DNA of 64,000 nucleotides. Source: an uncultured Oscillospiraceae bacterium. GTDB lineage: Bacteria > Bacillota > Clostridia > Oscillospirales > Oscillospiraceae. Positions within the stretch are counted from its first letter, which is position 1; each line of letters begins with the position of its first letter. The position numbers and the translations under genes are program-made. Under the pieces are notes generated by a model. The model saw only the letters and a list, made by a program, of their open reading frames with translations, was not told where the DNA came from and did not search any database. This document shows, in pieces, positions 7,901 to 37,181 of this stretch. The DNA is taken from positions 17,355 to 81,354 of the forward strand of contig CANQXK010000006.1 of the NCBI GenBank assembly GCA_947627715.1. Reading direction: 5' to 3'.

Positions 7901-10900
7901 AACGTCCGTGCCTTCCAGCTTCTTCTCGCTATCACCATCTGTGGGGTCTTTGACCACGACGCTGCCCTTCGTTCCGTCCGAACCATCCGGGAAGATCACG
8001 TAACCCGACTCCAGCAGCGGGGGATTGCTCTTCTTTCCACTCTCTTCAGTACCGCTCTGCTTGAGGGTCGCGCCCTCCGCCCCGGCGGTCAGGGTATTGG
8101 GGTTTGCACCGCCATCATCGGTTATGGTGATGGACGAGTTGGGTCCGAGATCAAGACCCTTTTCGGGAATCTCATCGACTGTGACGTTACCGTTCCCGTC
8201 AACGGTGAAGGTAAGTTCACTGTCGCCGTTATTTTTATATGTATGCTCATTGCCATCGGCATCGGTGACGGTCAGGGTCTCGCCCGCGGGGACGGTGACC
8301 TTGGCCTTGCCGTCCTCCTGGACCTCGACCTTGACGGGATCCTTTGTGTCGCCATCAGGATCGGAATTACCGCTGCCAATCTCCACGCTGCCGAAGCCCA
8401 CGGACTCATCGTCGTCCAGGTCCACCGCGCCGGAGGTGATGTCGGGCTTGCCGTCCTCACCAATGACAAATTTGGTATTGCCCTCACCTTCGGGGACGCT
8501 GTACTCGGTCGCAGCTTCGCCCTCGCCGATTTCTACCGCGCCGCCGCTGGGGACGGTAACGGTGGGCTTGCCCTCAGCCTCGGTATCGGAACCGTTGACG
8601 GTGACGTCGCTTCCCTCGCCGCCCTTGTTGGTGACGGGGATATTCTTCTCATTCTCCCCTTCTCCGGCCTTGACGAGAATCGAAGCGTTAGTCTCCTCAT
8701 TTCCGGGGAGGGTCAAGGTGCCGCTGGTCAGAGTATTTCCGTCATCGTTGATCTCAATGACAAGAGGATCATCCCCGGCGTTGGTGTACTCGTCACCGCC
8801 GATTGTTACCTTGCCGTCTTCGGGCACAGTTACCGTGCCGGTTCCCTTTTCCTTATCGGCTCTAACGGTGATGTCTTTGTCGGTGTTGGGGTTGGTGACC
8901 TTTTCGCCGGCCACGTAGACAGAATTTTCGTGCGCTTCGGGGGTCCCGTCCTTCTTGGGCAGGGTGATCTCATCCTCCACCAGCTGGGCGTGGTCGCCTT
9001 TCTCGGCGTCCTTCACGAGGTCGAGCTTTGCGCCGGCCTCGCCAGCCGTATACTTGTTGTCATTGACCGTGACGGTATCGCCAGCGGGGACCTCCACCTG
9101 TCCGGCCACGTCGCCGTCGCCGCCCTTGGTGATCACGGTGTCGCCGGTGTTCCCCGCATCGGTCTTGACCGTGAAGCCGTCAGATTCAGTGCCGGTCACC
9201 TCAACAGTGGCCTCAGTTCCGCCGGGAATCGTGGCCTTTCCGCCGTCCTTAAGCCCGTCAAACGGCTTGTCCAGATCGTAGCCAGTATCTCCGCTGCCCT
9301 CGAACACCACGCCGTCAATGTCAACCGCAGTCTCCGGGTCGTCAGGCGTAACGGTGCCGGTTTTTTCCGCGCTATCAATATTAAAGGTAACAGGGCCTTC
9401 GGGAATGACGGTGTGATCTTCACCGTTGCCGTCTTTGACCTTCACGGAATTATCTTCCATGCCTTCGGGCAGGGCGTGGCTGTTGTCGCCCCGGTCAGGG
9501 TTAAACGTCACGGTTCCGTTTTCAACGGTGATCGTGCCGTCCGTCTCCACAGTGAGCGTGGCTTCAGCCCCGGCGGGCACAGTGTACGTCCGGCCATAGT
9601 AGTCCACAAAGGTCTTGGGGCCGGAGACGTTATTCCAGGTCTGCGCTTCATCCTTGGGAAGGCCCACGACGTTGACTGTGTTGTTGGCGGTCTGGTCATC
9701 TGTAAGGGCGTTCGTTGCCTCATCCACGTCGGTGCACATGGTGGAGCCGACCTGATAGACTACGGCCTTGGCGGTGCCGTCCGGGCCGACTACGACCGTG
9801 GCGGGACCATCAAATGTTTTGGGGCCTCCCTCTACTCCGTTGCCGGAGACTTGCGCACTGCCGCCGTCGGGAATCTCAATGACGGTATTGCCCTCGGTGG
9901 GATAGTCGTCCCTGACAAGCAGGTCCTTACTGCCGGTATTCTCAATCTTGGCATCATTGCCGCCATCACGGGGAAGGGTGACCTTCGCGTCAGAGGCTTC
10001 TTCGCTATCAGGCAGGACGATCTCGCCATCTTCCAGCGTCACGTCGCCGGAGGTGACGGCTTTGGAGCCGTCCGGGCGCAGCTCGACCTCGACCGGCTCT
10101 ACGCCGTTGTTGGAGTACACGTCGTCCCCGGTCTGCATCTTACCGCCAGCGGGGACGGTGACGGTGGCGCCATTTTCAGGCGAATCTGCATCAACGGTGA
10201 GTTGCGTGTCATCGTCCACGTTCTCAACCTTGACGTCCTCTTCGCCGACTTTGACGTGTACATCTTTCTCCGGGCCAACCTTCACGTCGCCGGATTCCAG
10301 CGTATAGACAGTAGGATCGCCTGTAGGATCAACCACAAGTACAGTGGGGCCTTCGGGAATCTCATACTCGCGTCCGTCAATTATTACCTTGCCGCCTGTT
10401 CCTTCGGGCGCGGTTACCTTGATATTACCGTCCTCGCTCTTTTCAACGGTAATATCCGTGCTGCCTGTATTCTCAACGACCTTGCCGTTGACCGTGACGG
10501 CGTTGTTGTGTTCACCGTCTTTCTTGGGCAGAGTGACGCTGCCCTCGGCAAGCTCCACGTGTCCCGCGCCCTCGCCTTCGTCCTTCACAAGGTCCAGCTT
10601 CGTGTTATCGGTCCCCTTGTAGCTGTTGTCGCCGACCTTGGCAGTCTTGCCGCTCTCAACCGTCGCCCGACCCACTTTGCCCGTGCCGTCTTCGCCGTCG
10701 GGAGCGGTCTTGGTCACTTCGGCTTCGCCGGTCACGGTAAGATTCGCATTGTCGCCGTCGGTCTTGAGGGTCTTGCCGGAGGGAACCGTCGCCGTCCCGT
10801 CAACCTCAAGCGCGGAATACGGGTCGTCAAGGGGGTATTCGGGGGCAGAGGGGCTGTTGAAGGTCACGCCGTCGATGGTGACGTTTTGAGCGGGCACACT

Positions 10901-13777: not shown

Positions 13778-16700
13778 TCACTTCTCTTCCGGCTCAAGCT
13801 GGCAATAGCGCATGAGGACCGCGGCCATCTCATTGCGCCGGGCATAGCCGCGAGGATCGAACACGCCGCTGTCCCGGCCCTTGATGACGCCGTTCATGTT
13901 GCACCACGCCACCGCCTCAATCGCCCAGTCGGACATCTTGTCAAGGTCGGTGAAGGGCAGGCGGTACATCCAGTCGCCCGTGAAGCCGCCCTGGCCGTAC
14001 TCCTGCTCGTAGCGGTAGAGCATGGCCGCCATCTGCTCGCGGGTGATGGGATCGTCCGGGCCAAACCTGTTGTTGCCGTAGCCGCCCGCGATTTCCTCGC
14101 TGGCCGCCCAGCGGATGGCCTCGGCGTACCACGCCCCCTCGCTGACGTCGGAATAGGTCATGTAATAGTTGACCACCGGGCTGCCGCTCATGTTCCACAG
14201 TACCATGACCATCTGGGCGCGGGTGACCGTGTCTTCGGGGAGGAAGCGGTCAACGCTTATGCCGTGCATCAGGTCATGGGCGAGGACATAATCGGTATAC
14301 TCATGGTACCAGGCGTTCACATCGAGGTCCGCAAACTTCCGGCCCGGACAGTTCTCGCCGCCGAGGCACTTGAAGACGGCCTTCACGGTGACGCCGCCAT
14401 AGGGCATCTTGAAGGTGTAGGTGCCGTCGCCGTTGTCGGTGAGGGCGACTTCCTTGCCGTCCTTGTCGGTGACGGTGAGTTCGCCCAGGGCGTAGCCCTC
14501 CTCCGGCGTTACGGTGAGGGTGACGGTGGAGCCGCGAAGGGCGTTGCGGTGATTGACCGTCACGCTGCCGTTCTCCACGCGCTCCGGGAGCTTCACGGTG
14601 TAGTAGACGCCGGTGCTCTGGGTCCAGGTCAGCACATATGTGGAGTAGAACTTCGCGTGGATCTCGATGGCCGTGCCGTCCCGGATGACCCTCAGATACT
14701 CGCCGTCCCTGTTGGCGGACGTGGTGATGGTCTGCATATCCGCACTACCGTCACCGTCCGTATCGTGGAAGCGGTAGACGGTGTAGCTGGACTTGCCCTG
14801 TATCTCCGCGGGCAGGTGGATCACGGTGGTGATGAGCTGTTTGGAGTCGTGAATCTCCGTGGTTCCGTCACTACTACTACCCGTCACCGTCTTTGTCAGC
14901 TCCAGATCGACCACCAGGCCGATGCGGTCCTCCGGCACGGGAACCTGCTCCTCCTGGGTGGAATTAAGCTCCGTGCCCTTGACGGTCATCTTGAACTCCA
15001 CAGAGCCGCCATTCTTGACTGTCTCTTCATCGTCAGTGGTGTATATCCCCTCGTCGGCGGTGGCGCTGGGAGTTTCCACGATTTCCTCCATGTCCACCAC
15101 GGCGGTGACGTCGGCCTCCACCACGGTGTTCAGCGCCCCGTCGGGCAGGATGTAGTCCCCGGTAAGGTTATCCTTTTCCACGTCCACCAGGAAGGTCTTG
15201 ACCACGGTGGAGCTTCCGTTAAAATAGCGGACCTCCAGGTTGTAGATGCCGGGCACAAGGTTTTTAAACGAGAAATTACCGTCGGCGTCGGTGATCGCCT
15301 CGCCAGCCTCGTTATCGCCCTGCTTCAGGGTCACTGTCGCGCCCAGCAGCGACTTGGGTTCGTTGCCCTCCACCTCCTGCTTCACGGTGCCGCCGACCGT
15401 GCGGGTCTCCTTCACGTCCAGCCACTCGGCCTTGAAGGTCACGTCGGAAGCCGGCATGGGGAACTCCTCGTTGGGCCGGTACGTGATGCCGCCGAAGCTC
15501 CATCCCTGGAAGAGGTAACCGTCGCGGGTCAGGCCCGCGGGGAGGATCACCATCTGGCCCTCAAGGAGGTTCTCCATGGCCTCAGGGGCCGCGCCGCCCT
15601 CATAACCGGCGTCGAAGGTGACCTTGTAGGTCTTGACGCTGGCGAGGTTGTTGGTGAGGACCAGCTCTCCCACCTTGTGGAACGCGCCGTCGGAGGTGGC
15701 GGAGTGGCGGAAGTTCGTGTTGCCGATTGCCACCCAGACCTCGTATGTTCCGGCATCGGTGGGCGTTACCTCCTCGCCGTTCTTCTTGTAGACGATCGTT
15801 GTATCAAGCTCCGACACGACCGCCGTTCCCGGATCGGGATACTGGTGGTCGGTGCCCTCGTCCTTATCCGGCGTTGTGGACACCACGCCCCAGACGGGGG
15901 TCAGCTTAACCTCGGTGGGGTGACTTTCATCAGTGAGATCCCACACGTTATTGCTCACGGTGAAGGTCACCGGCGCGGGGACGATGCTCACGGTCGCCGT
16001 GGGGTTCTTCACAGTGTAGTTCCCGGCGTTCTGGCCGTAGAGGCCCGCCGTCACGGTGTACTCCTTCACATCCGAGTCATCAGTGGCGGCGAAGGCCACC
16101 AGGTACGCACCGGAGTAGCTTTCGGGATTATCAATATTGAAATCGGAAGGCAGCCCCTGCCCCGGAGGCAGCTGTTTGTTATCGTTCTCGAAGGGATCCT
16201 GCACCCGAATGTCGGGGTGCATGGGGTGGGCGTGGTAGACGTAGCTCAGGTGGGTCCAGATCACCGTGACCTCGTAGGGCTTTATCTCGATCGTGCCGAT
16301 TTTCAACTCGCGGGTGGCGGTTTCCTGGTCGCTAAAGGCGTAGTTGTAGATGCCGTCAGCCGTGGGTGTGAAGGTCACGATGATGTCATACGTCCCGGCG
16401 TTGCGCACCTCGTTAACATCGGTGCTACCCTTGCGGTAGGTCACCTTGTAGCCGTTGCTGGCGGCGGCGTTGATGGCGACCGGCTCGCCCGTAGTCTGGC
16501 TCACGTTGGCCTTGTGGTTATAGCTGTCGTAGGTCATGGTGAGGGCGAAATCCGTGCCGCTGCCGGTGAGGGTGTAGCCGCCCAGGTTGGGATCGTCGTT
16601 GGTCTCGCCCCTTGTGGACCAGTCAACCTTGGCCTCCGCGCCGATGGTAAAGCTCACCGTGGCAGGGGCAATGGTGTATTCCTGAGAGTCGTCTGTAAGC

Positions 16701-19700
16701 GTGTAATTTGTGGCGTCCGCGCCCGCAAGGCTCGCTTTGGCGGTATAGGTCCCCGCGTCGGTCTCGGCGTTGCCGGAGAACGTAAGTCTGACGCTGCTGT
16801 TCTCTGTGTCTGCCGCCACAAAATCCGTTGTTGTGGCGGTGACGCTTACAGGTTCGCCGGAGTACACAAGATCAGTATACCCATCCCACGTCAATGTGAC
16901 CTCTTTGGCCGTGATCTTCGCGGTTGTCGCAGCATCGGAGATTGAACTCTCTTTAAGGGCGTAATCCGTGGAGTTATTGAGCGTGATGCCGGACACGTTG
17001 ACGTGCTTATTCTCCCCCACGTTCTTGTCGGTGAAGGTGAAGGTCCCTGTCGCGGTGGGCTTGTTGTCTTTGAACGGCACTATGTCCAGATTCTCAGCAA
17101 ATTTCAGCGTGCCGTTTTGGGCATTTACATTCCCATCGTAGGTCTTGCTGTCCACCGAATCCACCTGCGGCGTAAGCTGATAGGGATTGACGGTGATTGT
17201 CACAGTCGTTTTGAGCGTGGAGGTCTCAAAATTGCCCGCGTAGGTCTCACTGGGCGTAAAGACCGCCACATAGTCGTGACTCTTATCGGAGGGCTTGGGA
17301 TAGGTGTCAACCTGAATCTCCCACGCCCAGGTGCCGGGGATAGTCGCTCCGCCGTCGCCCGCAATCGTCGCCGTGCCGGTGAGATTGCTCTCGTTCAGCG
17401 TATCGCCGTATGTGATGGCGGAACCTGTGACCGTCAGCTCCAGCGTGGCCTGCTCGATGGTCATGGTGCCGACTTTGACCTTTCCTTGCTTACCTTCAAA
17501 CTCGTAGTTATTTTTGGCGTTGTCGCTGGTCAGCTCGACCCAAACGCCGTAAGTCCCAACGTTGGTCTCGCTCGGATTGGCGTCAGTCGTGCCTCTCTCA
17601 TCACTGTTGGCGCGGTAGGTAACGCTGTAATCGCTGCCCTGCGTCAGCGCGGGAGCGCCGCCGGTTTTGACCGTGACATCGCCCACGGTCTGCGGCTGCG
17701 TGGTATAGGTAAGCTCCATCGTGATATTATCCACGCTGACAGTGGCCTTTTTGATGGTGTAGGTCTGGGTCTTTACCTCGGGCAGGGTGTAGTTTGCATC
17801 ATCGCTAAGTGCGGCAGTGGCGGTGTAGGTATTCGCGTCTGTCTTGTCGCCATCGGTGACGGTGACGGTGCAGGGGTATTTCTCCACAGGGTTCGTCACT
17901 GTGGCCGTGACCGTGTGGGAGTTGCCATCGTAGGTAATCTCGAAAGCATTCTCGCCATCCAGCTTCCACTCAAGCATCACCACCCGCTTGCCGATGGACG
18001 CCGTGGTATTCTGCTTGCTGAGTTCCGTTGTGGTCAGCTCATAGTTGGCTCCCCAGTCGCCCGTCAGAGTGATGCCTGTGACGGTGACGGTCTTGTTCTC
18101 GCCGGCGGTGGGGGTATCGAAGTTGAATGTCCCCGTCGCCGTGGGGTTCTCGTCGCGCACCGCGCCGGTGAGCTTGATGGTCCCTGTGGTTTCGGTTTCG
18201 CCGCTGAACTGGTCGATGTTCTGAACAGTGTCGATGCTGGGCGTCAGCTTCGCCTTGTTGACGGTGATTGTGATGGTTTTGCTCAGGCTTTCGGAGGTAA
18301 AGTTGCTTGCATCACTGCTGGTGGGTGTAAACTTTACCGTGTACTCAGTGTTCTCACTGTCCTTACTAACACTGGGATATTTCGCGGCATCCGTCGTATC
18401 CCACGCCCAGGTGCCGGTGATTTCCGTGCCGTCACTGATCTTCGCCGTGCCGGTGAGTTCACTCGCGCTCAGCGTCTGCCCGTAGGTGATGGCAGAGCCG
18501 GTGACGGAGAGGGTCAGCTCGGCCTGCTTGATGGTCAGCTTGTCGTCCAGCTTCAGCTCGCGGGTCTCGTCGGCCTCGTCCTTAAACTTGAAGTTGTCGT
18601 TCTTGAGGGTAACGTAGATGTCGTAGGTGCCCACATTGGTCTTATTTGCGGTCTTATCTGCGGCTCCTTCCGTGCCATATGTAACGCTGAAATCGTCCTC
18701 GCTCAGTTTGGGGGTCTCGCTGTCAGTCTGCTTCACCGTGGCGGTGTGGGCCTTGGTGTCGTAGGTGACCGTGTAATCCGTCACCTCAAAGCTCACCGGG
18801 GCTTTCTTGATGGTGAAATCCTGCGTGGGGTTATCATCAGGCAACTTATAGTTCCCCGCCGCGCTCCCGGTGAGCTGTGTGGCCTCAGCTGTGTAGCTCC
18901 CGGCGTTGGTTGCAGTTGCGCCGGTCGCCCCAGTCTCGCCGCCGTTGGCCTTTACCTCCACGGTCACATTGACCTCATCGCCGCTTTCCTTGTTGTTAAC
19001 GGTGGCAGTGATGGTATGCGCCGATCCAGTGTAGGTCAGGCTCTCGTGGCCCGTCCACGTCAGCGTGACCTCTTTCTGCTCAATCTGAACGGTGATGCTG
19101 TCGGGATCAGTGTCGTTGTGGTTATCGTCGCCCACGACCTTATACCACACGGTATACGTCCCCGCGTCCTTGCCGGTGATAGCGTCGGAGTCTTGCCAAA
19201 CTACATCTGCGCCGGGTTGAGTCGCAACGCCCTTCTCGCCGACATAATACTTCATCGTGCCGCCAGTGGCACTTCCAACGGTTTCAATCAACTTCTGATT
19301 CCCGCCGTTGTACACAAGGCCGCTCTCACCTGTTGGCTCGGACATACTACTTTCGGCCTTGGCGATTTCTATGCTATTGCTGGTAGCCTCTCCCGGCGTA
19401 TAGTACTTCGCGTCTTTACCCTTCAATGAAGAGACTGTCACCGTGACAGGTTTGTTCTTCCCGACATTTGCATCGTTGGCTTTGGCGGTAAAGGAATCGA
19501 CCTCCACCGCGTCGCCACTCACAAGCTGACTCGAAAAATCAGCAAAATTGCCGCTGACATTCTCGTTACCGTCGTATGTCTTATTACTCGCGTTAAATGT
19601 AAACGTCAGCGTCTTCTGGCTGACTTTCACTTCAGTTGCGTCGCTGGTTTTCTCAGTGATGTTGTTATTCCCGCTGTAAGCAGCGGTGACGCTCACAGTC

Positions 19701-22700
19701 CCGTTCTCGCCGAAAAGTGTATGCTGCTTCTCCTGATCGTTCGCCTCGATTGTCAGCGTCGCCTTGCCAGAAGCATCCACGTTCACGGCGGCGCCGAAGT
19801 TTTCGCCGCCAACCTTAAACTGCACCGTTGCGCCGCTGAATTTGTCGGCGGTGATGGAGCCGGACGTGACCTTTGCCGTCAGAGTGAAGTTGCTGCCGTA
19901 GGTGGCGGAATCCACTTCGCCGACGGTGACCGTCGATTCGGCTTTGCTGATTTCGACTGTCCCGACTTTCGTCGGCCCCACGTCCGCGTGGTTCCCGTCG
20001 CCGGTGACCTTATACCACACTTCGTATGTCTTTGCGTCGGTCCCGGTGGGAACGTCGTCCTGATAAACGCCTGCCTCCGAAAGGCTGTACTGAATTGTAC
20101 CGTCCTTGGTGTCTCCAGCGTCCACCAGCTGTTGCGCCTCGCCGGTGTAGACGAGTCCAGTCTTCGCCGTTGGCGCGGTATAGCTTGGCGTTTCCTTGCT
20201 TATGGTTGCCGTGACGCTCTGAGGTATCGTGTCGTTGTGGTTATCATCACCCTTGACATAGTACCAGATAGTGTACTCCTTGGCATCTGTGCCCTTGATG
20301 GTAGAAGCATCCTCTGTCCAGCTATCAGCCGTTGTGCCGGGGTTTGTAGTCCCTAAATAGTACTTCATCGTACCGCCTGTAGCCGTACCGGCGGTAATCA
20401 GCTCTTGCGCTACGCCAGTATATTTAAGCTCCTTCCCCGTGGGTGCGGAAAACTCTGTAATATCCGCCTTGCTGATGTTCACCGTCACGCCTGCGGGATT
20501 CGTGGCCTTGTAATAGTCCGCATCGTCCCCGGCCAGCGTGACCACCACCGTGACTTCCTTGTCAGTTCCCGCGTCAGCGTCGTTCATTTCAGCGGAGTAA
20601 TTCGCCGTCACGGTATCGGTGCCCACAAGCCCCGTGGTTACTTTGCCAGTTTCGTCCGTCTCGTTCAACTTTCCCGTTATAGTTGTATTGCCCGCCTCAT
20701 AGTCACGGGGTTCCGGCGTGAACGTAAACGTCAGCGGCTTGGGGTTCACCGTGACGGTGATCTTGGTGGTGCCCTGTTTCAGGTTGTCGCCCCCGCCATA
20801 GTTGACGGTTACGGTATTATCCGAACCTGCGTTGAAGTAGTTTTTAACTTGGTCCGCCGAGATTGTGACGGTGGCTTTGCCTCCCTCGGCAGGAATATTA
20901 TCAACAATCTCCGTTTTGCCGCCCTTCGGGAACACAAACTCAACCTGATTTGCCTCTGCGCTGGTGAGCGCAATGCCCGCCGCAGCCGCCTTATTCGGCG
21001 CGACCGTGACCTCAAGCGTGATTCCGCTCTCGTTGCCATAATCGTAAGTAATTGTACCCTGAGTCGGCGTAATATCAGCATCGGACTGGCCTATAGTCAC
21101 ATTGACAGTCCCGCTGGTCCCGTTAGTATAGGTATAATTATCCGTGTCCGCGCCGTCTATCTTCCAGTAGACAGTATAAGAGCCAACATCTTTCCCTGTC
21201 GGAACGTCCGTTGAATAATCTCCAGCCTCATCAAGGCTGTACTGCATCTCGCCGCAGCCCGAAACACTTGAAACACTTTCAACGCTTCCCGCGTCGATCA
21301 GCTCCTGCGCCGTGCCGGTGTAGGTCAGCGGCGCCTTTGCCGTGGGCGGGGTCACCGTGGCCGGGGCCTTGGCGATGGTCACCTTGACCGTGAGCGTCAC
21401 AGCTTCCGTGCCGTAGCTATCCACGCTCATAAGCGAATACTGCGGCGTTTTTTCCGTTGCCGTAACAGTAATCGTATAATCATTCGCGTTAAGCCCTGTG
21501 GGAACTGACAGCGTATTCTCGTTTTCTATGCTCGCGTTCGTGTTGCCCTTATCGCTTATTGCGTATGTAAACTTACCCGCAGCCTCAACATCCTCGTTCG
21601 CGTACTTCATATGCTCGTCCAAATTGACCGTAAGTGGCGCCTTGTAGCCGTAAGTCTCACTCAGCGTAATGTCCGCACTGTCTCCGCCGAAATGGTCGCG
21701 TCCCACGGCGTACACCGTCATATCCTCGGTAACGGGGGTTTCCTCGTCAAACTTTTCACCGTCCGCGTTCTGCGTCTTTGCCCACTTCTCAAACGTATAA
21801 TTATCCTTTACGGGGGTTTCCGGCATTTCCACAGTGCCGTTCGGATTTGTATATTTCGCGTCGTATGCCTCGTTTTCCTGCGTCGCGAACGTAACCTTCA
21901 AAACCTTTTTACTTTCCTCACTCGTAAGCACGGGGTAATCGTCCGCCTCGTCGCTGAGCTTCTGCCCCCACGCTTGCGGCTCCTGCTTGTTTTGCAGCAG
22001 CCACGCCACCTCGCCGGAATTAAACGCGTCCTCCGTTTTTGACGTGCCTTCACCTTTCGCGCCGCAGGTATCGAGGTAGTAGCAATTTTCGATGCTGCCG
22101 CCGGAGTTATATCCCGCAATGCCGCCAATACTGGTGTTTGTGTTGCTGCTTACCGTTCCCGTGTTATAGCAATTTTTAACGCTGCCGGAATTAGATCCCG
22201 CAATGCCGCCTATTCTACTATAGGAACTGGAACTGCCTTTTATCGCGCCCGCGTTACAGCAATTTTCAATGCTGCCGCCCTCGTTGTATCCCGCAATGCC
22301 GCCTACAGCGTAGCTGCCGTTTACCGCGTTCGTGTTACAGCAATTTTCGACGCTGCCGCCATTGTTGTATCCCACAATGCCGCCTACATCGTTTTTGCCT
22401 GTGACGCTGCCCGAAACGGTGAGATTTTTGATCGTGCCGGTGGAAAACCCAAACAGACCTTGGTAATCATCCGTAGTGTTTATGTAAATTCCGCTTATCG
22501 TGAAGTTGCCACCGTCAAATGTGCCGTTAAACGGCTTTCCAAACGTTCCGATGGGCGTCCATGATGTGCCGCTCGCGCTGTACTTTGACGACATATCTAT
22601 CTTCGCCGTCTGCTCAAAATATTCACCGCTGCCGCCGTTCGCATCAGTGTTAATATATTCACAAAACGCCTCCAGGTCGGTAAGGTTTGCGATTTTGTAC

Positions 22701-23734
22701 GGATCGCCCTCAGTACCCATACCGCCGCCCGTGCCCGCAAATTCGGCGTTCGCCGTAAGCAAGGGACGACCTAAAGCGGCGCAGTCATACCACACTTTCA
22801 ATCCGTCGTTGAGTGTCGACGCGAGTGTCTTAAATCCCTCGGCATTCTTTTTCTCAACCTTTTCCACCGTACCCTCTTCGTCGCCGATACCCTTTTCCGC
22901 CGTACCTGTAAGATAATAGCAGATTGATACCGTTCCGTATCCTCCCGTTCCCGCAATACAGCCGACGGCAGCGGCACCGCCGACGGCAAGCGTTATATTG
23001 CCCACGTTATAGCAGCTCATTATCGCTTGGTGATTTTTACCAACAATACCGCCCGTTCCGTCAGAACTGTCTGTCGAACTGTTTGTAATATTGCCCGTGT
23101 TATAAGAGTTGATTATAGATCCATATGAATTCATTCCCACAATGCCGCCGATCGAACCCTTTCCGGTGATATTTACGCTGCTGTAACAGCTTTCTATTCT
23201 GCAATTACCGCTGTTTTGTCCCACGATGCCACCGATAGCAGTTACATCGGCAGTACTGTTTATTGAACCCGATACGCCGAGATTGCTTATCGCGCCTCCG
23301 TCGCCGATGATGCTGCCTGTCGTTCCAAATAAGCCTACATATGTAACGGTATTATCGGTATATAACAACGACACTTTTATCGTATGACCGGCTCCGTCAA
23401 ATTCACCGTTAAACCCTGTTGACGACGTTCCTATCGGCGTCCAACTGTTACCGCCCGCGTACTTTTCGGACATATCTATATTCGCCGTCAGCTTGAAATA
23501 CTCGCCCTTGCCGCCGTCAGCATCCGCGTTGATATAGTCCCGGAACTTCTCAAGGTCGTCAAGATTGGAAATAAGATACGGTTCATCCTCCGTGCCGCTG
23601 CCGCCCGAGCCGACAAATTCCGCCGACGCGGCGATTTCCGCCACTCCGCCGGGCTGATCCGCCCACGCCGCCGTGGGGAGCAGGGTAAAGACCATCCCTA
23701 TGGCCAGCAACGCGCTCATAATCCGTTTTTTCAT
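13778..23734 (-). CDS. Giant (3318 aa) cell-surface protein: signal peptide, two tandem GLUG-repeat head domains, Listeria-Bacteroides-type repeats, more than 20 Ig/MBG-like repeats, CarboxypepD_reg-like domain, three C-terminal SLH domains
   Basis: - Signal peptide: MKKRIMSALLAIGMVFTLLPTAAWA.
- GLUG repeats: GGIVGxNxGxIxNCYNTG.
- Listeria-Bacteroides repeats: ...DNYTFEKWAK and DGYLFQGWSF.
- Repeating motifs L(T/V)YTGxAQEL and Y(T/E)VWYKVxGDDNHND.
- SLH motifs: FADLDVNAWYHEYTDYVLAHDLMHG, YSDVSEGAWYAEAIRWAASEEIAGGY, MSDWAIEAVAWCNMNGVIKG. Confidence 0.9.
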   Translation of the reverse strand: MKKRIMSALLAIGMVFTLLPTAAWADQPGGVAEIAASAEFVGSGGSGTEDEPYLISNLDDLEKFRDYINADADGGKGEYFKLTANIDMSEKYAGGNSWTPIGTSSTGFNGEFDGAGHTIKVSLLYTDNTVTYVGLFGTTGSIIGDGGAISNLGVSGSINSTADVTAIGGIVGQNSGNCRIESCYSSVNITGKGSIGGIVGMNSYGSIINSYNTGNITNSSTDSSDGTGGIVGKNHQAIMSCYNVGNITLAVGGAAAVGCIAGTGGYGTVSICYYLTGTAEKGIGDEEGTVEKVEKKNAEGFKTLASTLNDGLKVWYDCAALGRPLLTANAEFAGTGGGMGTEGDPYKIANLTDLEAFCEYINTDANGGSGEYFEQTAKIDMSSKYSASGTSWTPIGTFGKPFNGTFDGGNFTISGIYINTTDDYQGLFGFSTGTIKNLTVSGSVTGKNDVGGIVGYNNGGSVENCCNTNAVNGSYAVGGIAGYNEGGSIENCCNAGAIKGSSSSYSRIGGIAGSNSGSVKNCYNTGTVSSNTNTSIGGIAGYNSGGSIENCYYLDTCGAKGEGTSKTEDAFNSGEVAWLLQNKQEPQAWGQKLSDEADDYPVLTSEESKKVLKVTFATQENEAYDAKYTNPNGTVEMPETPVKDNYTFEKWAKTQNADGEKFDEETPVTEDMTVYAVGRDHFGGDSADITLSETYGYKAPLTVNLDEHMKYANEDVEAAGKFTYAISDKGNTNASIENENTLSVPTGLNANDYTITVTATEKTPQYSLMSVDSYGTEAVTLTVKVTIAKAPATVTPPTAKAPLTYTGTAQELIDAGSVESVSSVSGCGEMQYSLDEAGDYSTDVPTGKDVGSYTVYWKIDGADTDNYTYTNGTSGTVNVTIGQSDADITPTQGTITYDYGNESGITLEVTVAPNKAAAAGIALTSAEANQVEFVFPKGGKTEIVDNIPAEGGKATVTISADQVKNYFNAGSDNTVTVNYGGGDNLKQGTTKITVTVNPKPLTFTFTPEPRDYEAGNTTITGKLNETDETGKVTTGLVGTDTVTANYSAEMNDADAGTDKEVTVVVTLAGDDADYYKATNPAGVTVNISKADITEFSAPTGKELKYTGVAQELITAGTATGGTMKYYLGTTNPGTTADSWTEDASTIKGTDAKEYTIWYYVKGDDNHNDTIPQSVTATISKETPSYTAPTAKTGLVYTGEAQQLVDAGDTKDGTIQYSLSEAGVYQDDVPTGTDAKTYEVWYKVTGDGNHADVGPTKVGTVEISKAESTVTVGEVDSATYGSNFTLTAKVTSGSITADKFSGATVQFKVGGENFGAAVNVDASGKATLTIEANDQEKQHTLFGENGTVSVTAAYSGNNNITEKTSDATEVKVSQKTLTFTFNASNKTYDGNENVSGNFADFSSQLVSGDAVEVDSFTAKANDANVGKNKPVTVTVSSLKGKDAKYYTPGEATSNSIEIAKAESSMSEPTGESGLVYNGGNQKLIETVGSATGGTMKYYVGEKGVATQPGADVVWQDSDAITGKDAGTYTVWYKVVGDDNHNDTDPDSITVQIEQKEVTLTWTGHESLTYTGSAHTITATVNNKESGDEVNVTVEVKANGGETGATGATATNAGSYTAEATQLTGSAAGNYKLPDDNPTQDFTIKKAPVSFEVTDYTVTYDTKAHTATVKQTDSETPKLSEDDFSVTYGTEGAADKTANKTNVGTYDIYVTLKNDNFKFKDEADETRELKLDDKLTIKQAELTLSVTGSAITYGQTLSASELTGTAKISDGTEITGTWAWDTTDAAKYPSVSKDSENTEYTVKFTPTSSDASNFTSESLSKTITITVNKAKLTPSIDTVQNIDQFSGETETTGTIKLTGAVRDENPTATGTFNFDTPTAGENKTVTVTGITLTGDWGANYELTTTELSKQNTTASIGKRVVMLEWKLDGENAFEITYDGNSHTVTATVTNPVEKYPCTVTVTDGDKTDANTYTATAALSDDANYTLPEVKTQTYTIKKATVSVDNITMELTYTTQPQTVGDVTVKTGGAPALTQGSDYSVTYRANSDERGTTDANPSETNVGTYGVWVELTSDNAKNNYEFEGKQGKVKVGTMTIEQATLELTVTGSAITYGDTLNESNLTGTATIAGDGGATIPGTWAWEIQVDTYPKPSDKSHDYVAVFTPSETYAGNFETSTLKTTVTITVNPYQLTPQVDSVDSKTYDGNVNAQNGTLKFAENLDIVPFKDNKPTATGTFTFTDKNVGENKHVNVSGITLNNSTDYALKESSISDAATTAKITAKEVTLTWDGYTDLVYSGEPVSVTATTTDFVAADTENSSVRLTFSGNAETDAGTYTAKASLAGADATNYTLTDDSQEYTIAPATVSFTIGAEAKVDWSTRGETNDDPNLGGYTLTGSGTDFALTMTYDSYNHKANVSQTTGEPVAINAAASNGYKVTYRKGSTDVNEVRNAGTYDIIVTFTPTADGIYNYAFSDQETATRELKIGTIEIKPYEVTVIWTHLSYVYHAHPMHPDIRVQDPFENDNKQLPPGQGLPSDFNIDNPESYSGAYLVAFAATDDSDVKEYTVTAGLYGQNAGNYTVKNPTATVSIVPAPVTFTVSNNVWDLTDESHPTEVKLTPVWGVVSTTPDKDEGTDHQYPDPGTAVVSELDTTIVYKKNGEEVTPTDAGTYEVWVAIGNTNFRHSATSDGAFHKVGELVLTNNLASVKTYKVTFDAGYEGGAAPEAMENLLEGQMVILPAGLTRDGYLFQGWSFGGITYRPNEEFPMPASDVTFKAEWLDVKETRTVGGTVKQEVEGNEPKSLLGATVTLKQGDNEAGEAITDADGNFSFKNLVPGIYNLEVRYFNGSSTVVKTFLVDVEKDNLTGDYILPDGALNTVVEADVTAVVDMEEIVETPSATADEGIYTTDDEETVKNGGSVEFKMTVKGTELNSTQEEQVPVPEDRIGLVVDLELTKTVTGSSSDGTTEIHDSKQLITTVIHLPAEIQGKSSYTVYRFHDTDGDGSADMQTITTSANRDGEYLRVIRDGTAIEIHAKFYSTYVLTWTQSTGVYYTVKLPERVENGSVTVNHRNALRGSTVTLTVTPEEGYALGELTVTDKDGKEVALTDNGDGTYTFKMPYGGVTVKAVFKCLGGENCPGRKFADLDVNAWYHEYTDYVLAHDLMHGISVDRFLPEDTVTRAQMVMVLWNMSGSPVVNYYMTYSDVSEGAWYAEAIRWAASEEIAGGYGNNRFGPDDPITREQMAAMLYRYEQEYGQGGFTGDWMYRLPFTDLDKMSDWAIEAVAWCNMNGVIKGRDSGVFDPRGYARRNEMAAVLMRYCQLEPEEK

Positions 23735-26114: not shown

Positions 26115-26200
26115 AGGGACCGTCAGGGTCCCCCCCTCGAAATTAATAGCAGCTCCACAAGAAAACGCACCAGTCCGCGGACTGGTGCGTTTTCTTGTGG
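26115..26200. repeat. Copy A of an ~86-bp double-hairpin module (second copy at 47659-47750)
   Basis: About 90% identical by eye to the sequence flanking the 3' end of tRNA-Thr. It contains GGGACC-GTCA-GGTCCC and a 23-bp perfect stem (26153-26175 / 26178-26200). It sits between convergent genes, so it probably also acts as a terminator. Confidence 0.7.
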
Positions 26201-26256
26201 AATAAGTGGTTAAAAGTCCTATTATTGAGAAAGCCTTGCGACGCAAGGGATTTGGG

Positions 26257-34727: not shown

Positions 34728-35513
34728 TTAAGTATTGCCTAACAAGAAATTGATTGCAGGCATGCTGTGCTTAAATAAGGGAACTTTGAGCTTATTACAA
34801 ATTTTATCTAAATGTGCTATTTCATCAGAAACATCTACATATTTCATAGATTCTGCTAATGCTCCTTGCAAATATTCTGTATCACCATTGCAATATTTGA
34901 GAGTTTTTTCTCCTATATTTAAACGCATTAATATTTTATCATTGACCATAAGAGGCCCCGTGATTATACAATGGGCACTATTAGCAGCAAGTTCTACAAT
35001 TTTCTCTATTTCACTGTTTGGAATAATAAAGGAAGGGAAAAGAGGTCTAATTAGTAGCATAGTTCTAATGTTGCTGGTTTTTAGTTTTGATAAAAACTTT
35101 ATGCGTTCTGTTGTCTTAGGGATTAAGTGAGTATTTTCTGAAACATTTGCAGATTCCATTCCTATTACAGAACACGCCCAAAAAAGCATTTTATTTTGAG
35201 CTGTCATAATTTTGTTGAGTTCCAAGAGGCGCTGGTACTGGTTGTTATCCAATATATTTCTTGTAATGATCAATATATTACATTTGTAACGTTGAAAAAC
35301 TTTTTCACATAGTTCTAAACCTACTGCCGGATCAGCAAAGCTGTCACTACGTTGAGAAATATATACTATATCAAATTTTTCATTGGCAATCGAGGCAACA
35401 ATTTGATCGATGGTACGTTTTACGTCCCTTTCTATTTGATATGTATAACAGTGTTTACATTGAAACGGGCAGAAATCATCAACGGAAATTAACACACGTT
35501 TTTGTATATTCAT
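34728..35513 (-). CDS. Radical SAM enzyme (261 aa, no SPASM/twitch extension), unknown substrate
   Basis: An N-terminal CxxxCxxC motif: VDDFCPFQCKHCYTY. About 30% GC. Its ATG overlaps the stop of the upstream gene (ATGA at 35510-35513). Confidence 0.75.
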   Translation of the reverse strand: MNIQKRVLISVDDFCPFQCKHCYTYQIERDVKRTIDQIVASIANEKFDIVYISQRSDSFADPAVGLELCEKVFQRYKCNILIITRNILDNNQYQRLLELNKIMTAQNKMLFWACSVIGMESANVSENTHLIPKTTERIKFLSKLKTSNIRTMLLIRPLFPSFIIPNSEIEKIVELAANSAHCIITGPLMVNDKILMRLNIGEKTLKYCNGDTEYLQGALAESMKYVDVSDEIAHLDKICNKLKVPLFKHSMPAINFLLGNT

Positions 35514-36214
35514 CTATTTTCCCCTCCAATAATAACTTCAATTTTTTTGATCAAACCTATAGTATCAGTTTTGCTGATTTCTTCGAAAAGGTTTTTAATA
35601 ACGTAAAGCGCTTTAAAAATAAAGTTAATTTCATTTTCCCTAAAAACAAATGCTGGATAATTTTCTGTTTTTGTAGTAAAATCTATAGAACATGCGCCTA
35701 TAACCTTTGCGTCTCTTTTAATCAAAGTGGTAGCAATAGCAAAAATTTTATTGTTCACATCCCATATTGGTTTATTATATAGAGGAAATATATCATCATA
35801 ATCATCTGTAGATATCATTGTTAATTTATCATTTTCGTAAATATATGCGTTTTTCGGAGAATTATCGTTATACTGAAATTGTGCGAAAAGTGATTTGTTG
35901 TTTTTCCTAGTATTTTCAAAAAGGGCTCCAACAACTCCATATTTTATTGGCTTACTATCTATAGTTGCTTTTTTCCCTTCAATAATCGAATATCGTTTTT
36001 GGCTTTTTCTATCCAGCAATACTATATGATAATCTACTTTTAAATCATATGATATGTTTCCGAGAATATCTGTTATAGGAGATAGAACGCTTTCAAACAT
36101 ATTATTTAACGAATTGTCTGATAAAACTGATTGGAGATTTAGCAAAGTAATATCTTGACAATAGGGTTCTTGTTTTTTATTGTGTGGATTTTCTTGCGCT
36201 CCTATACTGGTCAT
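35510..36214 (-). CDS. Hypothetical 234-aa protein, possibly a GAF-like ligand-binding fold
   Basis: No catalytic motif was recognised. The alternating pattern (...HIVLLD...YGVVGALFEN...IFAIATTLIKRDAKVIGACSIDF...FIFKALYVIKNLFEEI) is reminiscent of GAF domains. It is translationally coupled on both sides. Confidence 0.4.
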   Translation of the reverse strand: MTSIGAQENPHNKKQEPYCQDITLLNLQSVLSDNSLNNMFESVLSPITDILGNISYDLKVDYHIVLLDRKSQKRYSIIEGKKATIDSKPIKYGVVGALFENTRKNNKSLFAQFQYNDNSPKNAYIYENDKLTMISTDDYDDIFPLYNKPIWDVNNKIFAIATTLIKRDAKVIGACSIDFTTKTENYPAFVFRENEINFIFKALYVIKNLFEEISKTDTIGLIKKIEVIIGGENR

Positions 36215-36410
36215 TTTTTCCTCCTATGTAAATCCTCTTCAATTTTTGCAATAATATCGGTTATTCTCATCTCTAATTCAGCAATATGATTGTCGGCTAT
36301 TTCGATATCTTCGAATTTATGGTTTGTACGCCATGTGTGCCAACTGTTATATTCGTTAATTAAATCATAAAATCATAAAATAGAAAAATGTTATTTTTGC
36401 TATCTTGGCT

Positions 36411-36698
36411 TTAAAATTCCTTGCATTGAAAAAGCAACTCCATTTTTTGCCCATATATCCATGCATCAAATACTGGCGTAGAAACAGGTTCGATATAATA
36501 ATATACTGCATCCTTATCTTTTCTTTGAATATCACGAATCGTTTTCTTGACGCAATCCAATTCAGATATAATATTATCTTTTATATTATTCCTTTCTCTC
36601 CGTATATTCCTTTTATCATATATGCTAGTAAAAAATATAGCCAATGTACAGCCAACACAAGTGGAAATTAAAGTCGGTATAAACTGTGACCAATCCAT
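36411..36698 (-). CDS. Small membrane-anchored protein (96 aa, one N-terminal TM helix), possibly the 5' part of a disrupted longer gene
   Basis: MDWSQFIPTLISTCVGCTLAIFFTSIYDKRNIRRERN..., preceded by an AGGGGA RBS. Downstream, a start-less 50-codon frame (36215-36367: ...NEYNSWHTWRTNHKFEDIEIADNHIAELEMRITDIIAKIEEDLHRRKK*) ends in a TGA that overlaps the ATG of the next gene. Confidence 0.45.
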   Translation of the reverse strand: MDWSQFIPTLISTCVGCTLAIFFTSIYDKRNIRRERNNIKDNIISELDCVKKTIRDIQRKDKDAVYYYIEPVSTPVFDAWIYGQKMELLFQCKEF

Positions 36699-37097
36699 AA
36701 TAGCATCCCCTAAGCTAATTATTTTGATATTTTCTTCTATCGTGCCGCCCATTCTCCAAAAATGCAACAAAGAGCATAAACATTTGTTAAATTTTCATAT
36801 AAAAACGTTCCTAAAAGCTATATGTTTTATCTAATAGTTTTTGTTACACAGTTTCTGTATTTTTTGATTTTTTGTGAAAGGAATATTTAAACATCATGCT
36901 TTCTTCAAACGCTTTTGATGTCAACGCTACCTGTAATGGCAAATTATGGCCCAACAGGACTGCTTTGGAGCTGAACATTGCATAACGTAATGTTTGTACT
37001 AATATTTAATTTATTAAAGATCTTTAACCGAGCGGCGAGATTTTTTCGTACAAGGCAAGAAAGACGGTGCCGGGAATGCAAATGTTCAACCGCGATA

Positions 37098-37181
37098 CCT
37101 CAAATTCTGCGGGGGGACCCCCTGCAATTTTTGGGAGGGGAATCATATTAACAAGACGTAAGGCAGCAAGAATAAAGCCCT
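37098..37181. repeat. Direct repeat R2 (~84 bp) flanking the AT-rich cassette
   Basis: CCTCAAATTCTGCGGGGGGACCCCCTGCAATTTTTGGGAGGGGAATCATATTAACAAGACGTAAGGCAGCAAGAATAAAGCCCT, in the same orientation as R1. Confidence 0.8.

Follow-up and report, generated by a model that had tools for sequence, protein, structure and literature searches.

A cassette of three consecutive, co-directional, overlapping minus-strand genes was analysed in a 64,000-nucleotide (nt) stretch of contig CANQXK010000006.1 from an uncultured Oscillospiraceae bacterium (hereafter the window; all coordinates are positions in it, with minus-strand genes marked (-) and plus-strand genes (+)). The genes encode a membrane protein, a GAF-fold protein of 234 amino acids (aa) and a radical S-adenosylmethionine (SAM) enzyme of 261 aa. 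The results indicate that the two larger proteins very likely form a conserved, functional radical SAM and GAF-like system, and this system is very probably functional, horizontally mobile and previously undescribed. Judging from the company that its genes keep, a conflict or defence role is likely, and we regard as evenly balanced the proposition that the cassette represents the minimal form (type A) of a modular system of gut Bacillota, so far undescribed, that serves in conflict or against phages. The comparative evidence is strong and its parts agree with one another; the chemistry in prospect would be unusual; and the family is a rare one, restricted to gut Bacillota.

The anatomy of the cassette was read directly from the window (Table 1). 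Between about 34,720 and about 37,000 lies a block of 2.3 kb whose G+C content ranges over 0.27-0.36 (about 30%), whereas the right flank has about 0.6 and the left flank 0.41-0.53; the cassette is AT-rich and compositionally foreign. Both downstream gene junctions are ATGA stop/start overlaps, each with a good ribosome-binding site (AGGAGG and GGAGGGG): the GAF-like gene is coupled in this way to the radical SAM gene, and the TGA of the membrane-gene remnant overlaps the ATG of the GAF-like gene, as in intact operons. The ATG at 36698 is preceded by a Shine-Dalgarno sequence, AGGGGA, and gives a membrane-protein reading frame of 96 aa, which extends to 119 aa (36411-36770) if a TTG start is used. 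By sequence criteria the open reading frames (ORFs) are real genes and not chance, because long ORFs are unlikely by chance in 30% G+C DNA and because both larger proteins have clear homologues. A promoter-consensus scan of the leader found 16 sites compared to 12.5 +/- 3.5 in shuffled sequence, no excess in AT-rich DNA. A preliminary description of this DNA, made from its letters, had claimed tightly packed co-directional genes of about 30% G+C, ATGA coupling of the 234-aa and 261-aa genes, foreign composition and a single N-terminal transmembrane helix in the 96-aa protein, and the present results bear out each of these.

The radical SAM family was found in 19 species-level genomes, all of them gut or rumen Clostridia (Oscillospiraceae, Lachnospiraceae) or Bacilli metagenome-assembled genomes, and a metagenome scan added 17 more loci. 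An exhaustive hidden Markov model (HMM) search, made over 1.84 billion representatives, yielded 42 radical SAM clusters when the threshold was E<=1e-30 and 361 when it was E<=1e-3. The result showed that in 27 of the 35 distinct loci a gene with the GAF-like domain lies directly ahead of the enzyme gene and either overlaps its start or ends no more than about 55 nt short of it. The two families are also similarly rare (22 clusters for the enzyme and 33 for the domain among 5.8 billion). The part joined to the GAF-like domain differs from locus to locus (Table 1): a separate one-helix membrane protein in architecture A, a trypsin domain in B, an N-terminal transmembrane helix in C, and elsewhere a GT4 glycosyltransferase domain of the Pfam 'conflict systems' family PF20706, a DUF4062 domain or other regions. 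Single-chain proteins with the GT4-conflict, GAF-like and radical SAM parts were found (P0070, P0074 and P0076, with P0098 as a truncated or partial example), and in a rough neighbour-joining tree the radical SAM clades track partner type. The remaining eight of the 35 loci, namely the Bacilli operons (type D), L030/31, L034 and L056, showed no GAF-like domain even at E<=10. The preliminary description had asked whether the pair always occurs together; the pairing is conserved, but it is not universal.

Homologues of the 261-aa protein fell into 22 clusters, with 35-55% identity and E values down to 5e-88. C15, C19, H21 and C22, which make up the motif CxxxCxHC, are invariant in all 22 homologues; further invariant residues are R6, R85, R137, R156 and C239, and all are present in the window copy. 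The three motif cysteines are those of CxxxCxxC, by which radical SAM enzymes ligate their [4Fe-4S] cluster. An AlphaFold2 (AF2) model built on the 22 homologues had a predicted local distance difference test score (pLDDT) of 90.9 and a predicted template-modelling score (pTM) of 0.89. Its top Foldseek matches in the PDB were radical SAM enzymes at probability 1.0, with generic TIM-barrel enzymes lower in the list; they included NifB (7bi7, query-normalised TM-score 0.63), CysS, SuiB, the viperin-like 9dfu, TokK, BioB, anSME, BlsE, AprD4 and MoaA, at 8-16% identity. The Pfam model PF04055 scored 21.1 bits on the window protein, below its gathering score of 29.5, and only four of the 22 homologues had a precomputed match to it. 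In the model, the motif and a partial (beta/alpha)6 TIM-barrel fold are both present, and the family appears simply too divergent for PF04055; the 261-aa protein is thus predicted to have a true radical SAM fold, very divergent and without a close family.

Scans of the three window proteins with Pfam, NCBIfam and PADLOC gave nothing above threshold, and the radical SAM profile found no relative among PDB sequences. Weak similarities to the NCBIfam families PA0069, Rv2578c and 'radical SAM mobile pair B' recurred in 14, 12 and 11 of the 22 members, respectively (best E values 1e-5 to 2.5e-4); the window protein scored 16.4 bits against PA0069, whose cut-off is 360. These three families belong to the SplB/COG1533-like group. 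No SPASM or twitch cysteine cluster was seen in the alignment, in which C239 is the single extra invariant cysteine, and the viperin model was absent from the Pfam and NCBIfam matches of all 22 members. The fold, the invariant motif and the lack of a viperin match agree with the preliminary description, which had called the protein a compact radical SAM enzyme without SPASM or twitch clusters and distinct from viperin, and had seen no cognate glycyl-radical enzyme nearby; none was found in any neighbourhood examined. Foldseek against viral structures returned generic radical SAM matches only, including a viral PFL-activase at rank 8. No relatives of the enzyme were found in IMG/VR contigs, GenBank phages or PLSDB plasmids, a result that we count neither for nor against the proposal made below.

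Several family assignments were tried and rejected. Membership of the viperin family was rejected on the absence of a sequence match, the structural likeness being at superfamily level only, and a glycyl-radical-enzyme activase on the absence of matches to activase models and of a glycyl-radical enzyme in the neighbourhoods examined. A SPASM maturase of ribosomally synthesized and post-translationally modified peptides (RiPPs) was set aside as there is no auxiliary cluster (C239 only) and no conserved short ORF in the loci. The PA0069, Rv2578c and TIGR04470 families were excluded by scores of about 16-25 bits against cut-offs in the hundreds, and spore-photoproduct lyase by scores far below cut-offs and the lack of a DNA-binding or repair context.

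Homologues of the 234-aa protein were found at 41-42% identity, and its GAF-like domain comprises about 190 aa. R74, G93, G96 and G173 are invariant in both the 18-sequence and the 33-sequence alignments, and D178 is invariant in the former and nearly so in the latter. No Pfam GAF model matched the protein even at E<=1, and it belongs to no Pfam, NCBIfam or PADLOC family; its profile gave a marginal match among PDB sequences, to the GAF domain of Nlh1 (E 7e-4). The AF2 model had a pLDDT of 77.3, and the top 50 Foldseek matches in the PDB were all GAF domains or GAF-containing proteins (target-normalised TM-scores 0.5-0.6), among them CyaB2, PDE2A/5/6/10, PtsP, fRMsr and phytochromes, with GAFs that bind cAMP or cGMP among the top. 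The protein is therefore predicted to adopt a GAF fold, a six-stranded antiparallel sheet flanked by helices. The domain would bind a small ligand, and in the model the invariant arginine on beta-2 and the G93-x-x-G96 helix cap would suit a phosphate. The earlier guess of a GAF-like protein was right at fold level, and the structural comparison then suggested (AlphaFold plus Foldseek) returned a radical SAM fold for the 261-aa protein and a GAF fold for this one. BLASTP of the free 234-aa protein against the trypsin-fused and helix-fused versions gave no link (E 0.013-3); BLASTP alone could not join free and fused forms, and profile methods were therefore needed. With hhalign, the trypsin-fused and helix-fused forms matched at 97% probability and the free and trypsin-fused forms at 63% (E 7e-5), and an iterated HMM recruited all forms at E<1e-39.

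The membrane-protein gene of the window is broken. Intact homologues have 175-198 aa (L058; L011, 180 aa; L001, 198 aa), and tblastn of these against 36200-36790 matched the 96-aa ORF and then went on in another frame through the detached frame. The first lesion is an in-frame TAA at 36411-36413; the second is an 8-bp tandem duplication, TTTTATGA x2, at 36365-36380, which puts the 3' remnant out of frame. When the TAA was replaced and one copy of TTTTATGA deleted, a 159-aa protein resulted that aligned end to end with the L058, L001 and L011 proteins and held the conserved DWSQF-transmembrane helix and the WHTWRTN motif. By its sequence, then, the gene is a pseudogene carrying a nonsense codon and an 8-bp duplication. 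The preliminary description had suspected a start-less frame at 36215-36367 of being the detached C-terminus of the first gene; the frame lies at 36211-36366 instead, but its identity stood, as the tblastn match and the repaired alignment show. Metagenome contigs that are identical to this sequence and come from several samples (L006, L008, L009, L038-L040) show the gene broken in the same way, and the 234-aa and 261-aa proteins of the window keep every family-invariant residue.

Decayed copies were also seen among relatives, a sign that the preliminary description had named beforehand as one that would speak against its idea of a defence cassette. In L056 (795-1606) the radical SAM gene is split into two ORFs, besides the loss of the second cluster cysteine (CPFEYKHC), and this copy is hence a pseudogene; in L027 (395-1188) the gene for the helix-fused GAF-like protein is split in two. 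Pseudogenisation of the module seems frequent. Metagenome assemblies repeatedly break within the 3' end of the GAF-like gene (L004/L005/L007 compared to L038-L040, from the samples that also hold the identical window sequence), the broken contigs stopping at GAF-like residue 221 or beginning 139 nt ahead of the radical SAM gene. The truncated variant has 97% identity and not 100%, a hint that strains may differ at this junction.

Defence neighbours were examined within about 5 kb in six loci picked by eye. All six had a neighbour matching PADLOC models of defence or candidate-defence systems, although in L060 this was a family-level ATPase only (Table 1). Integrases, serine recombinases, insertion sequence (IS) elements, TnpV and a chloramphenicol acetyltransferase (CAT) resistance gene are common around the loci. 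The defence neighbours of the picked loci are suggestive of a defence function. PADLOC-DB v2.0.0 gave no match for the radical SAM, GAF-like, membrane, CYTH, Trypco1, GT4-GAF or DUF4062-GAF proteins, and the trypsin domain alone gave a weak match to LmuA (E 2e-7). Full-text literature searches found no description of a radical SAM and GAF (with or without CYTH) module and no mention of TIGR04470/71. The claims that the cassette sits amid mobile elements and matches no system that can be named thus hold up: relatives lie among mobile-element and known defence genes, the suggested PADLOC run matched no component, and no PADLOC model, Pfam family or literature description covers the system.

Clues to the substrate come from further neighbours and fusions. 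A CYTH protein, absent from the window, adjoins the radical SAM gene in many loci; it scored 23.0 bits against 23.2 for Pfam CYTH, and its best PDB relatives are the archaeal triphosphate tunnel metalloenzyme Saci_0718 (E 3e-9) and class IV adenylyl cyclases. Its tunnel residues (E-x-E-x-K, R131/R133, K144, E159/E161, K187/R189 and E212/E214) are invariant in nine sequences. In Bacilli, nucleoside diphosphate kinase (NDK) and dCMP deaminase are operon partners of the enzyme, and the dCMP deaminase-CYTH-NDK-radical SAM operon looks like a self-contained nucleotide-modifying pathway. Two NTP_transferases follow the enzyme gene in L060, and distant relatives of the enzyme are fused to NUDIX, HAD phosphatase, PfkB kinase or GFO/IDH/MocA oxidoreductase domains. 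From the CYTH, NDK, dCMP deaminase and NTP-transferase neighbours and the NUDIX, HAD and PfkB fusions we infer a nucleotide or sugar-phosphate substrate, the balance tilting slightly towards a nucleotide-type one.

The variable partners of the GAF-like domain (transmembrane helix, trypsin, GT4, DUF4062) look like effectors, which makes it more likely that the radical SAM enzyme serves as a conserved catalytic core than as an effector. The picture drawn in the preliminary description thus stood in its sensor-like domain, now seen as a GAF fold, and is less likely to be right in casting the radical SAM enzyme as the effector; a maker of a signal or metabolite is the likelier role. Pycsar, CBASS, Thoeris and type III CRISPR-CARF systems are all marked by one enzyme beside a sensor whose effectors are swapped, and on this ground we favour the enzyme's product as the ligand of the GAF domain, a possibility that is still short of probable. 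We infer the direction of signalling accordingly and tentatively propose that the enzyme is an immune signal generator, making from a nucleotide, or from SAM together with a nucleotide, a new second messenger that a dedicated GAF receptor would read, switching on interchangeable effectors, the TIR-like DUF4062 included; in this complete form the proposal is somewhat doubtful. In the mechanism that we rate as the most likely, the radical SAM core would act by radical chemistry on a nucleotide or nucleotide-sugar, and upon infection it would make a modified nucleotide. The GAF-like domain would bind this product via its invariant arginine and Gly-x-x-Gly helix cap, and binding would switch on the output module that the domain couples. 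In type A the output would be the separate single-pass membrane protein, leading to membrane damage and abortive infection; elsewhere it would be an N-terminal transmembrane helix, trypsin with Trypco1, the 'conflict-system' GT4, DUF4062 or others.

Several points weigh against the reading of the cassette as a conflict or anti-phage system with this mechanism. The window copy is probably no longer a complete system and probably effector-dead, because its membrane-protein gene is a pseudogene. The six loci with defence neighbours are a hand-picked sample and not an unbiased enrichment. The confidence of the GAF model is moderate (pLDDT 77; TM-scores 0.34-0.44 when query-normalised). The eight loci without a GAF-like domain suggest that the enzyme can work without it, and they fit metabolite-making at least as well as signalling, while the single-chain GT4-GAF-radical SAM fusions make a diffusible messenger unnecessary. 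In addition, L060 lies in what looks like a cluster for nucleotide-sugar biosynthesis, with an epimerase and a DegT aminotransferase, and the GT4 fusions might indicate a chemistry of the envelope or of glycans.

The product of the radical SAM enzyme might instead be antiviral itself, as in viperins, being a chain-terminating or toxic nucleotide analogue, with the GAF-like domain as trigger sensor or allosteric regulator and the transmembrane, protease and GT4 parts as accessories or second effectors. The Bacilli operons without a GAF-like domain resemble a self-contained nucleotide-analogue pathway and recall prokaryotic viperins, which often adjoin nucleotide kinases; the enzyme model matched the fungal viperin-like 9dfu at rank 7 and viperin 5vsm at rank 22 in the Foldseek search of the PDB; the structures that the partner matches best are those of enzymes under GAF control, the CyaB2 cyclase for example; and the single-chain GAF-radical SAM fusions suit allosteric control. 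However, the family has no sequence membership among viperins, type A and type C systems come without a nucleotide kinase or CYTH protein, and the systematic swapping of effector modules on the GAF-like domain is unexplained if the radical SAM enzyme is the sole effector. We consider this explanation unlikely.

A protein-directed reaction would have the radical SAM enzyme act as an activase or maturase does and modify the GAF-like protein after translation, for instance at the invariant YG-V-V-G loop, and so arm or disarm the output module. The strict, one-to-one, translationally coupled pairing, the co-varying clades and the covalent fusions are in keeping with it, as are the invariant glycines of the partner and the compact enzyme of about 260 aa, with its N-terminal cluster motif as in glycyl-radical activases and the viral PFL-activase at rank 8. 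It is improbable, however, as no NCBIfam or Pfam match to activase families was found, eight loci have the enzyme without a GAF-like protein, and relatives adjoin, or are fused to, enzymes that act on small molecules, namely nucleotides or sugar phosphates.

The chance is similarly slim that the module has no immune role and carries out a regulated step of nucleotide-sugar, envelope or secondary-metabolite chemistry as cargo of mobile elements. The L060 cluster, with its two NTP_transferases, an epimerase/dehydratase and the DegT aminotransferase, would fit such chemistry, and so would the GT4 glycosyltransferase fusions, the distant relatives fused to GFO/IDH/MocA oxidoreductase, PfkB or HAD domains, and the presence of the sugar-modifying enzymes BlsE and AprD4 among the Foldseek matches. 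Yet the GT4 domain is specifically that of the 'conflict systems' family PF20706, the trypsin plus Trypco1, DUF4062 and bare transmembrane partners do not fit a biosynthetic pathway, known defence systems adjoin the module in all six hand-picked loci, and the distribution is patchy, the composition foreign and pseudogenisation frequent. A RiPP or peptide maturase or a DNA-repair enzyme like spore-photoproduct lyase, to which the weak PA0069, Rv2578c and 'radical SAM mobile pair B' similarities and the SuiB and anSME matches might point, is highly improbable given 16 bits against a cut-off of 360, no SPASM or twitch cluster, no conserved short precursor ORF in the loci and no DNA-binding or repair context.

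Were the module an immune system, it would bring a second, unrelated radical SAM family, after the viperins, into bacterial antiviral defence, and would link such chemistry to a receptor of the GAF type whose effectors can be exchanged. A messenger derived from a nucleotide or an antiviral nucleotide analogue, new in either case, would then be implied. The products of viperins are chain terminators of antiviral interest, and the messengers of CBASS and Thoeris revealed eukaryotic parallels. If the enzyme is indeed a signal generator, no earlier immune signalling system would have rested on radical chemistry, and its product would be a new class of ligand for GAF domains. The intact operons L058, L001 and L012, the natural fusions P0070, P0074 and P0076 and the invariant residues offer an experimental handle, and three 'hypothetical' families, the radical SAM enzyme, the GAF-like domain and the one-helix membrane partner, can now be named and linked.

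Table 1. Features of the cassette and its surroundings in the window, architectures of related loci (L numbers) and defence genes adjoining the six picked loci.
Feature	Position or locus	Strand	Description
Radical SAM enzyme	34728-35513	(-)	261 aa; CPFQCKHC at residues 15-22; ORF call
GAF-fold protein	35510-36214	(-)	234 aa; ORF call, domain alignments, AF2/Foldseek
Membrane-protein gene, 5' part	36411-36698	(-)	96 codons from ATG; transmembrane helix at about residues 5-25; premature TAA at 36411-36413
Membrane-protein gene, 3' remnant	36211-36410	(-)	...NEYNSWHTWRTN...HRRKK*; translation in three frames and tblastn
Upstream non-coding leader of cassette	36699-37111	(-)	AT-rich until about 37,000 (G+C profile)
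70-nt direct repeat, right copy	37112-37181	(+)	At junction of cassette and host amidase gene; candidate recombination boundary
70-nt direct repeat, left copy	33822-33891	(+)	90% identical to right copy; upstream of DUF6809 gene
DUF6809 gene	33927-34259		E 4e-21
Large serine recombinase	29875-31719		Pfam domains of identical genes in L004/L005
IS3-type transposase	32110-33258		Pfam domains of identical genes in L004/L005
TNT-like (tuberculosis necrotizing toxin) protein	28073-28666		197 aa; E 3.8e-5, below Pfam threshold
Architecture A	window, L001, L010/11, L017, L058		One-helix membrane protein, free GAF-like protein, radical SAM enzyme
Architecture B	L012-16, L019, L022, L045, L049 (trypsin-fused)		Trypco1, trypsin-GAF-like fusion, radical SAM enzyme, CYTH
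Architecture C	L018, L020, L023-25, L027, L046-48		N-terminal transmembrane helix fused to GAF-like domain, then radical SAM enzyme
GT4-conflict fusion	L026, L042		PF20706 fused to GAF-like domain, with or without CYTH
DUF4062 fusion	L033		DUF4062 fused to GAF-like domain
Large GAF-like protein	L060		869-aa protein carrying GAF-like domain
Other fusions			GAF-like domain fused to two further N-terminal regions of no known family
GAF-less Bacilli operon	L028/L029/L035/L051/L052/L055, e.g. L029 6202-8786		dCMP deaminase-CYTH-NDK-radical SAM; four distinct loci
GAF-less, HAD	L030/31		Radical SAM and HAD-like gene
GAF-less, phosphoesterase	L034		Radical SAM with metallophosphoesterase neighbour
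GAF-less, decayed	L056		Decayed copy
IetA/IetS	L012		E 1e-142 / 1e-282 (PADLOC)
AbiD	L017		PADLOC match
PDC-M19A/B	L018		PADLOC match
SpbK-like TIR	L058		PADLOC match
DitA	L035		PADLOC match; a serine recombinase also adjoins the Bacilli operon
PD-T4-4/HEC-02-like ATPase	L060		PADLOC, family-level only

The surroundings of the cassette in the window contain the serine recombinase, the IS3 transposase and the TNT-like protein of Table 1, in line with the earlier claim of neighbouring recombinases and a toxin-type gene. The TNT-like protein lies in a second low-G+C block (28073-29644, 0.39-0.42) and is directly followed by a 322-aa protein that comprises a complete Ribosomal_L1 domain and an N-terminal extension of about 110 aa, an odd pairing of a toxin and an L1-domain protein that L004/L005 have as well. 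The 70-nt repeat has only two copies in the window, where none is expected by chance; within it are a hairpin that resembles a terminator on the plus strand (TGCGGGGGACCCCCTGCA followed by a run of T) and the promoter-like hexamers TTAACA-17-TATAAA. The host amidase gene has its 3' end directly at the right copy, and the left copy precedes the DUF6809 gene. As the two copies bracket the DUF6809 gene, a non-coding stretch of 470 nt and the low-G+C three-gene cassette, they may mark a recombination or insertion boundary. The non-coding stretch (34260-34727, G+C 0.41-0.50), between the stops of the DUF6809 and radical SAM genes, has no convincing ORF, merely short overlapping ones of 44-70 aa on both strands; it had no match in Rfam, be it to a group II intron, a retron or a riboswitch, and no plasmid match was found for it and the DUF6809 gene.

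Rfam on the region from 26 to 40 kb found only a transfer-messenger RNA (tmRNA) fragment, a 3' end at 33430-33523 (-) with E 2e-6 that is not a full gene, and the window has no complete tmRNA gene. A segment of about 300 nt beside the fragment (33128-33429) is duplicated 5.8 kb upstream at 27349-27644, with 82-89% identity; together, the fragment and the duplicated segment look like tandem integrations at an ssrA-type attachment site. At 26154-26201 there is a perfect loopless palindrome of 24+24 nt, which may be a terminator or an att-related site and whose left arm resembles the tmRNA 3' end (CAGCTCCACAAGAA...). Upstream of the island are two giant minus-strand ORFs, 1931-12781 (3616 aa) and 13778-23734 (3318 aa).

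Compared to known systems, the module comes closest in organization to Pycsar, CBASS, Thoeris and type III CRISPR-CARF systems, in which a conserved enzyme stands beside a small-ligand-binding domain with interchangeable effectors (transmembrane proteins, proteases, TIR-like proteins). By analogy with CBASS, Pycsar and Thoeris, the arrangement of a sensor domain with interchangeable effectors beside an enzyme appears to be present here, and so are the placement in defence islands and the carriage on mobile elements; in the window copy the effector gene appears to be lost or decaying. In contrast, the enzyme is a radical SAM protein and not a CD-NTase, class III cyclase, TIR or Cas10 protein, and no CD-NTase, pyrimidine cyclase or TIR (ThsB) enzyme was found in the operons by PADLOC or Pfam. 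The receptor is a private GAF-like family and not a SAVED, CARF, STING, cNMP-binding or SLOG domain, and enzyme and receptor are sometimes one polypeptide.

With prokaryotic viperins the enzyme shares its compact radical SAM architecture, the lack of a SPASM domain and the location in defence islands, and a nucleotide substrate would be a further likeness, suggested here by the NDK and deaminase neighbours. It differs from them in having no sequence membership (query-normalised TM-scores about 0.5-0.6, 8-11% identity), and viperins come without the GAF-like partner and effector modules found here. The CyaB1/CyaB2 cyclases and PDE2/5/6/10, the best structural matches of the 234-aa protein, share with it the GAF fold and, in general idea, a ligand-binding GAF domain that controls an attached catalytic or output domain; the sequence family is nevertheless unrelated to Pfam GAF models, its conserved residues (R74, YGxxG and SxDF) are different ones, and its partner enzyme is a radical SAM protein. 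Among named families, PA0069, Rv2578c and TIGR04470 alone gave recurrent weak matches to the enzyme alignment, TIGR04470 being by its NCBIfam name a paired radical SAM gene of mobile elements, with no function given; bit scores of 16-25 separate them from the enzyme, and no GAF-like partner is known for them.

The NTP-dependent conflict systems of Kaur et al. 2020 (PMC7159879) share several output parts with the module. That work defines Trypco1 and lists GAF, as a nucleotide-binding domain, and glycosyltransferases among conflict-system domains; here, Trypco1 (PF19493) with a trypsin peptidase and GT4-conflict (PF20706) occur on the GAF-like domain. Their systems are built around vWA-MoxR or STAND NTPases, none of which is present here, and their radical SAM protein is a different, peptide-modifying one found in FtsH ternary systems. 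Taken together, the system would work like signalling-type or viperin-type defence but is a member of neither, its logic of enzyme, sensor and effector being set on new protein families.

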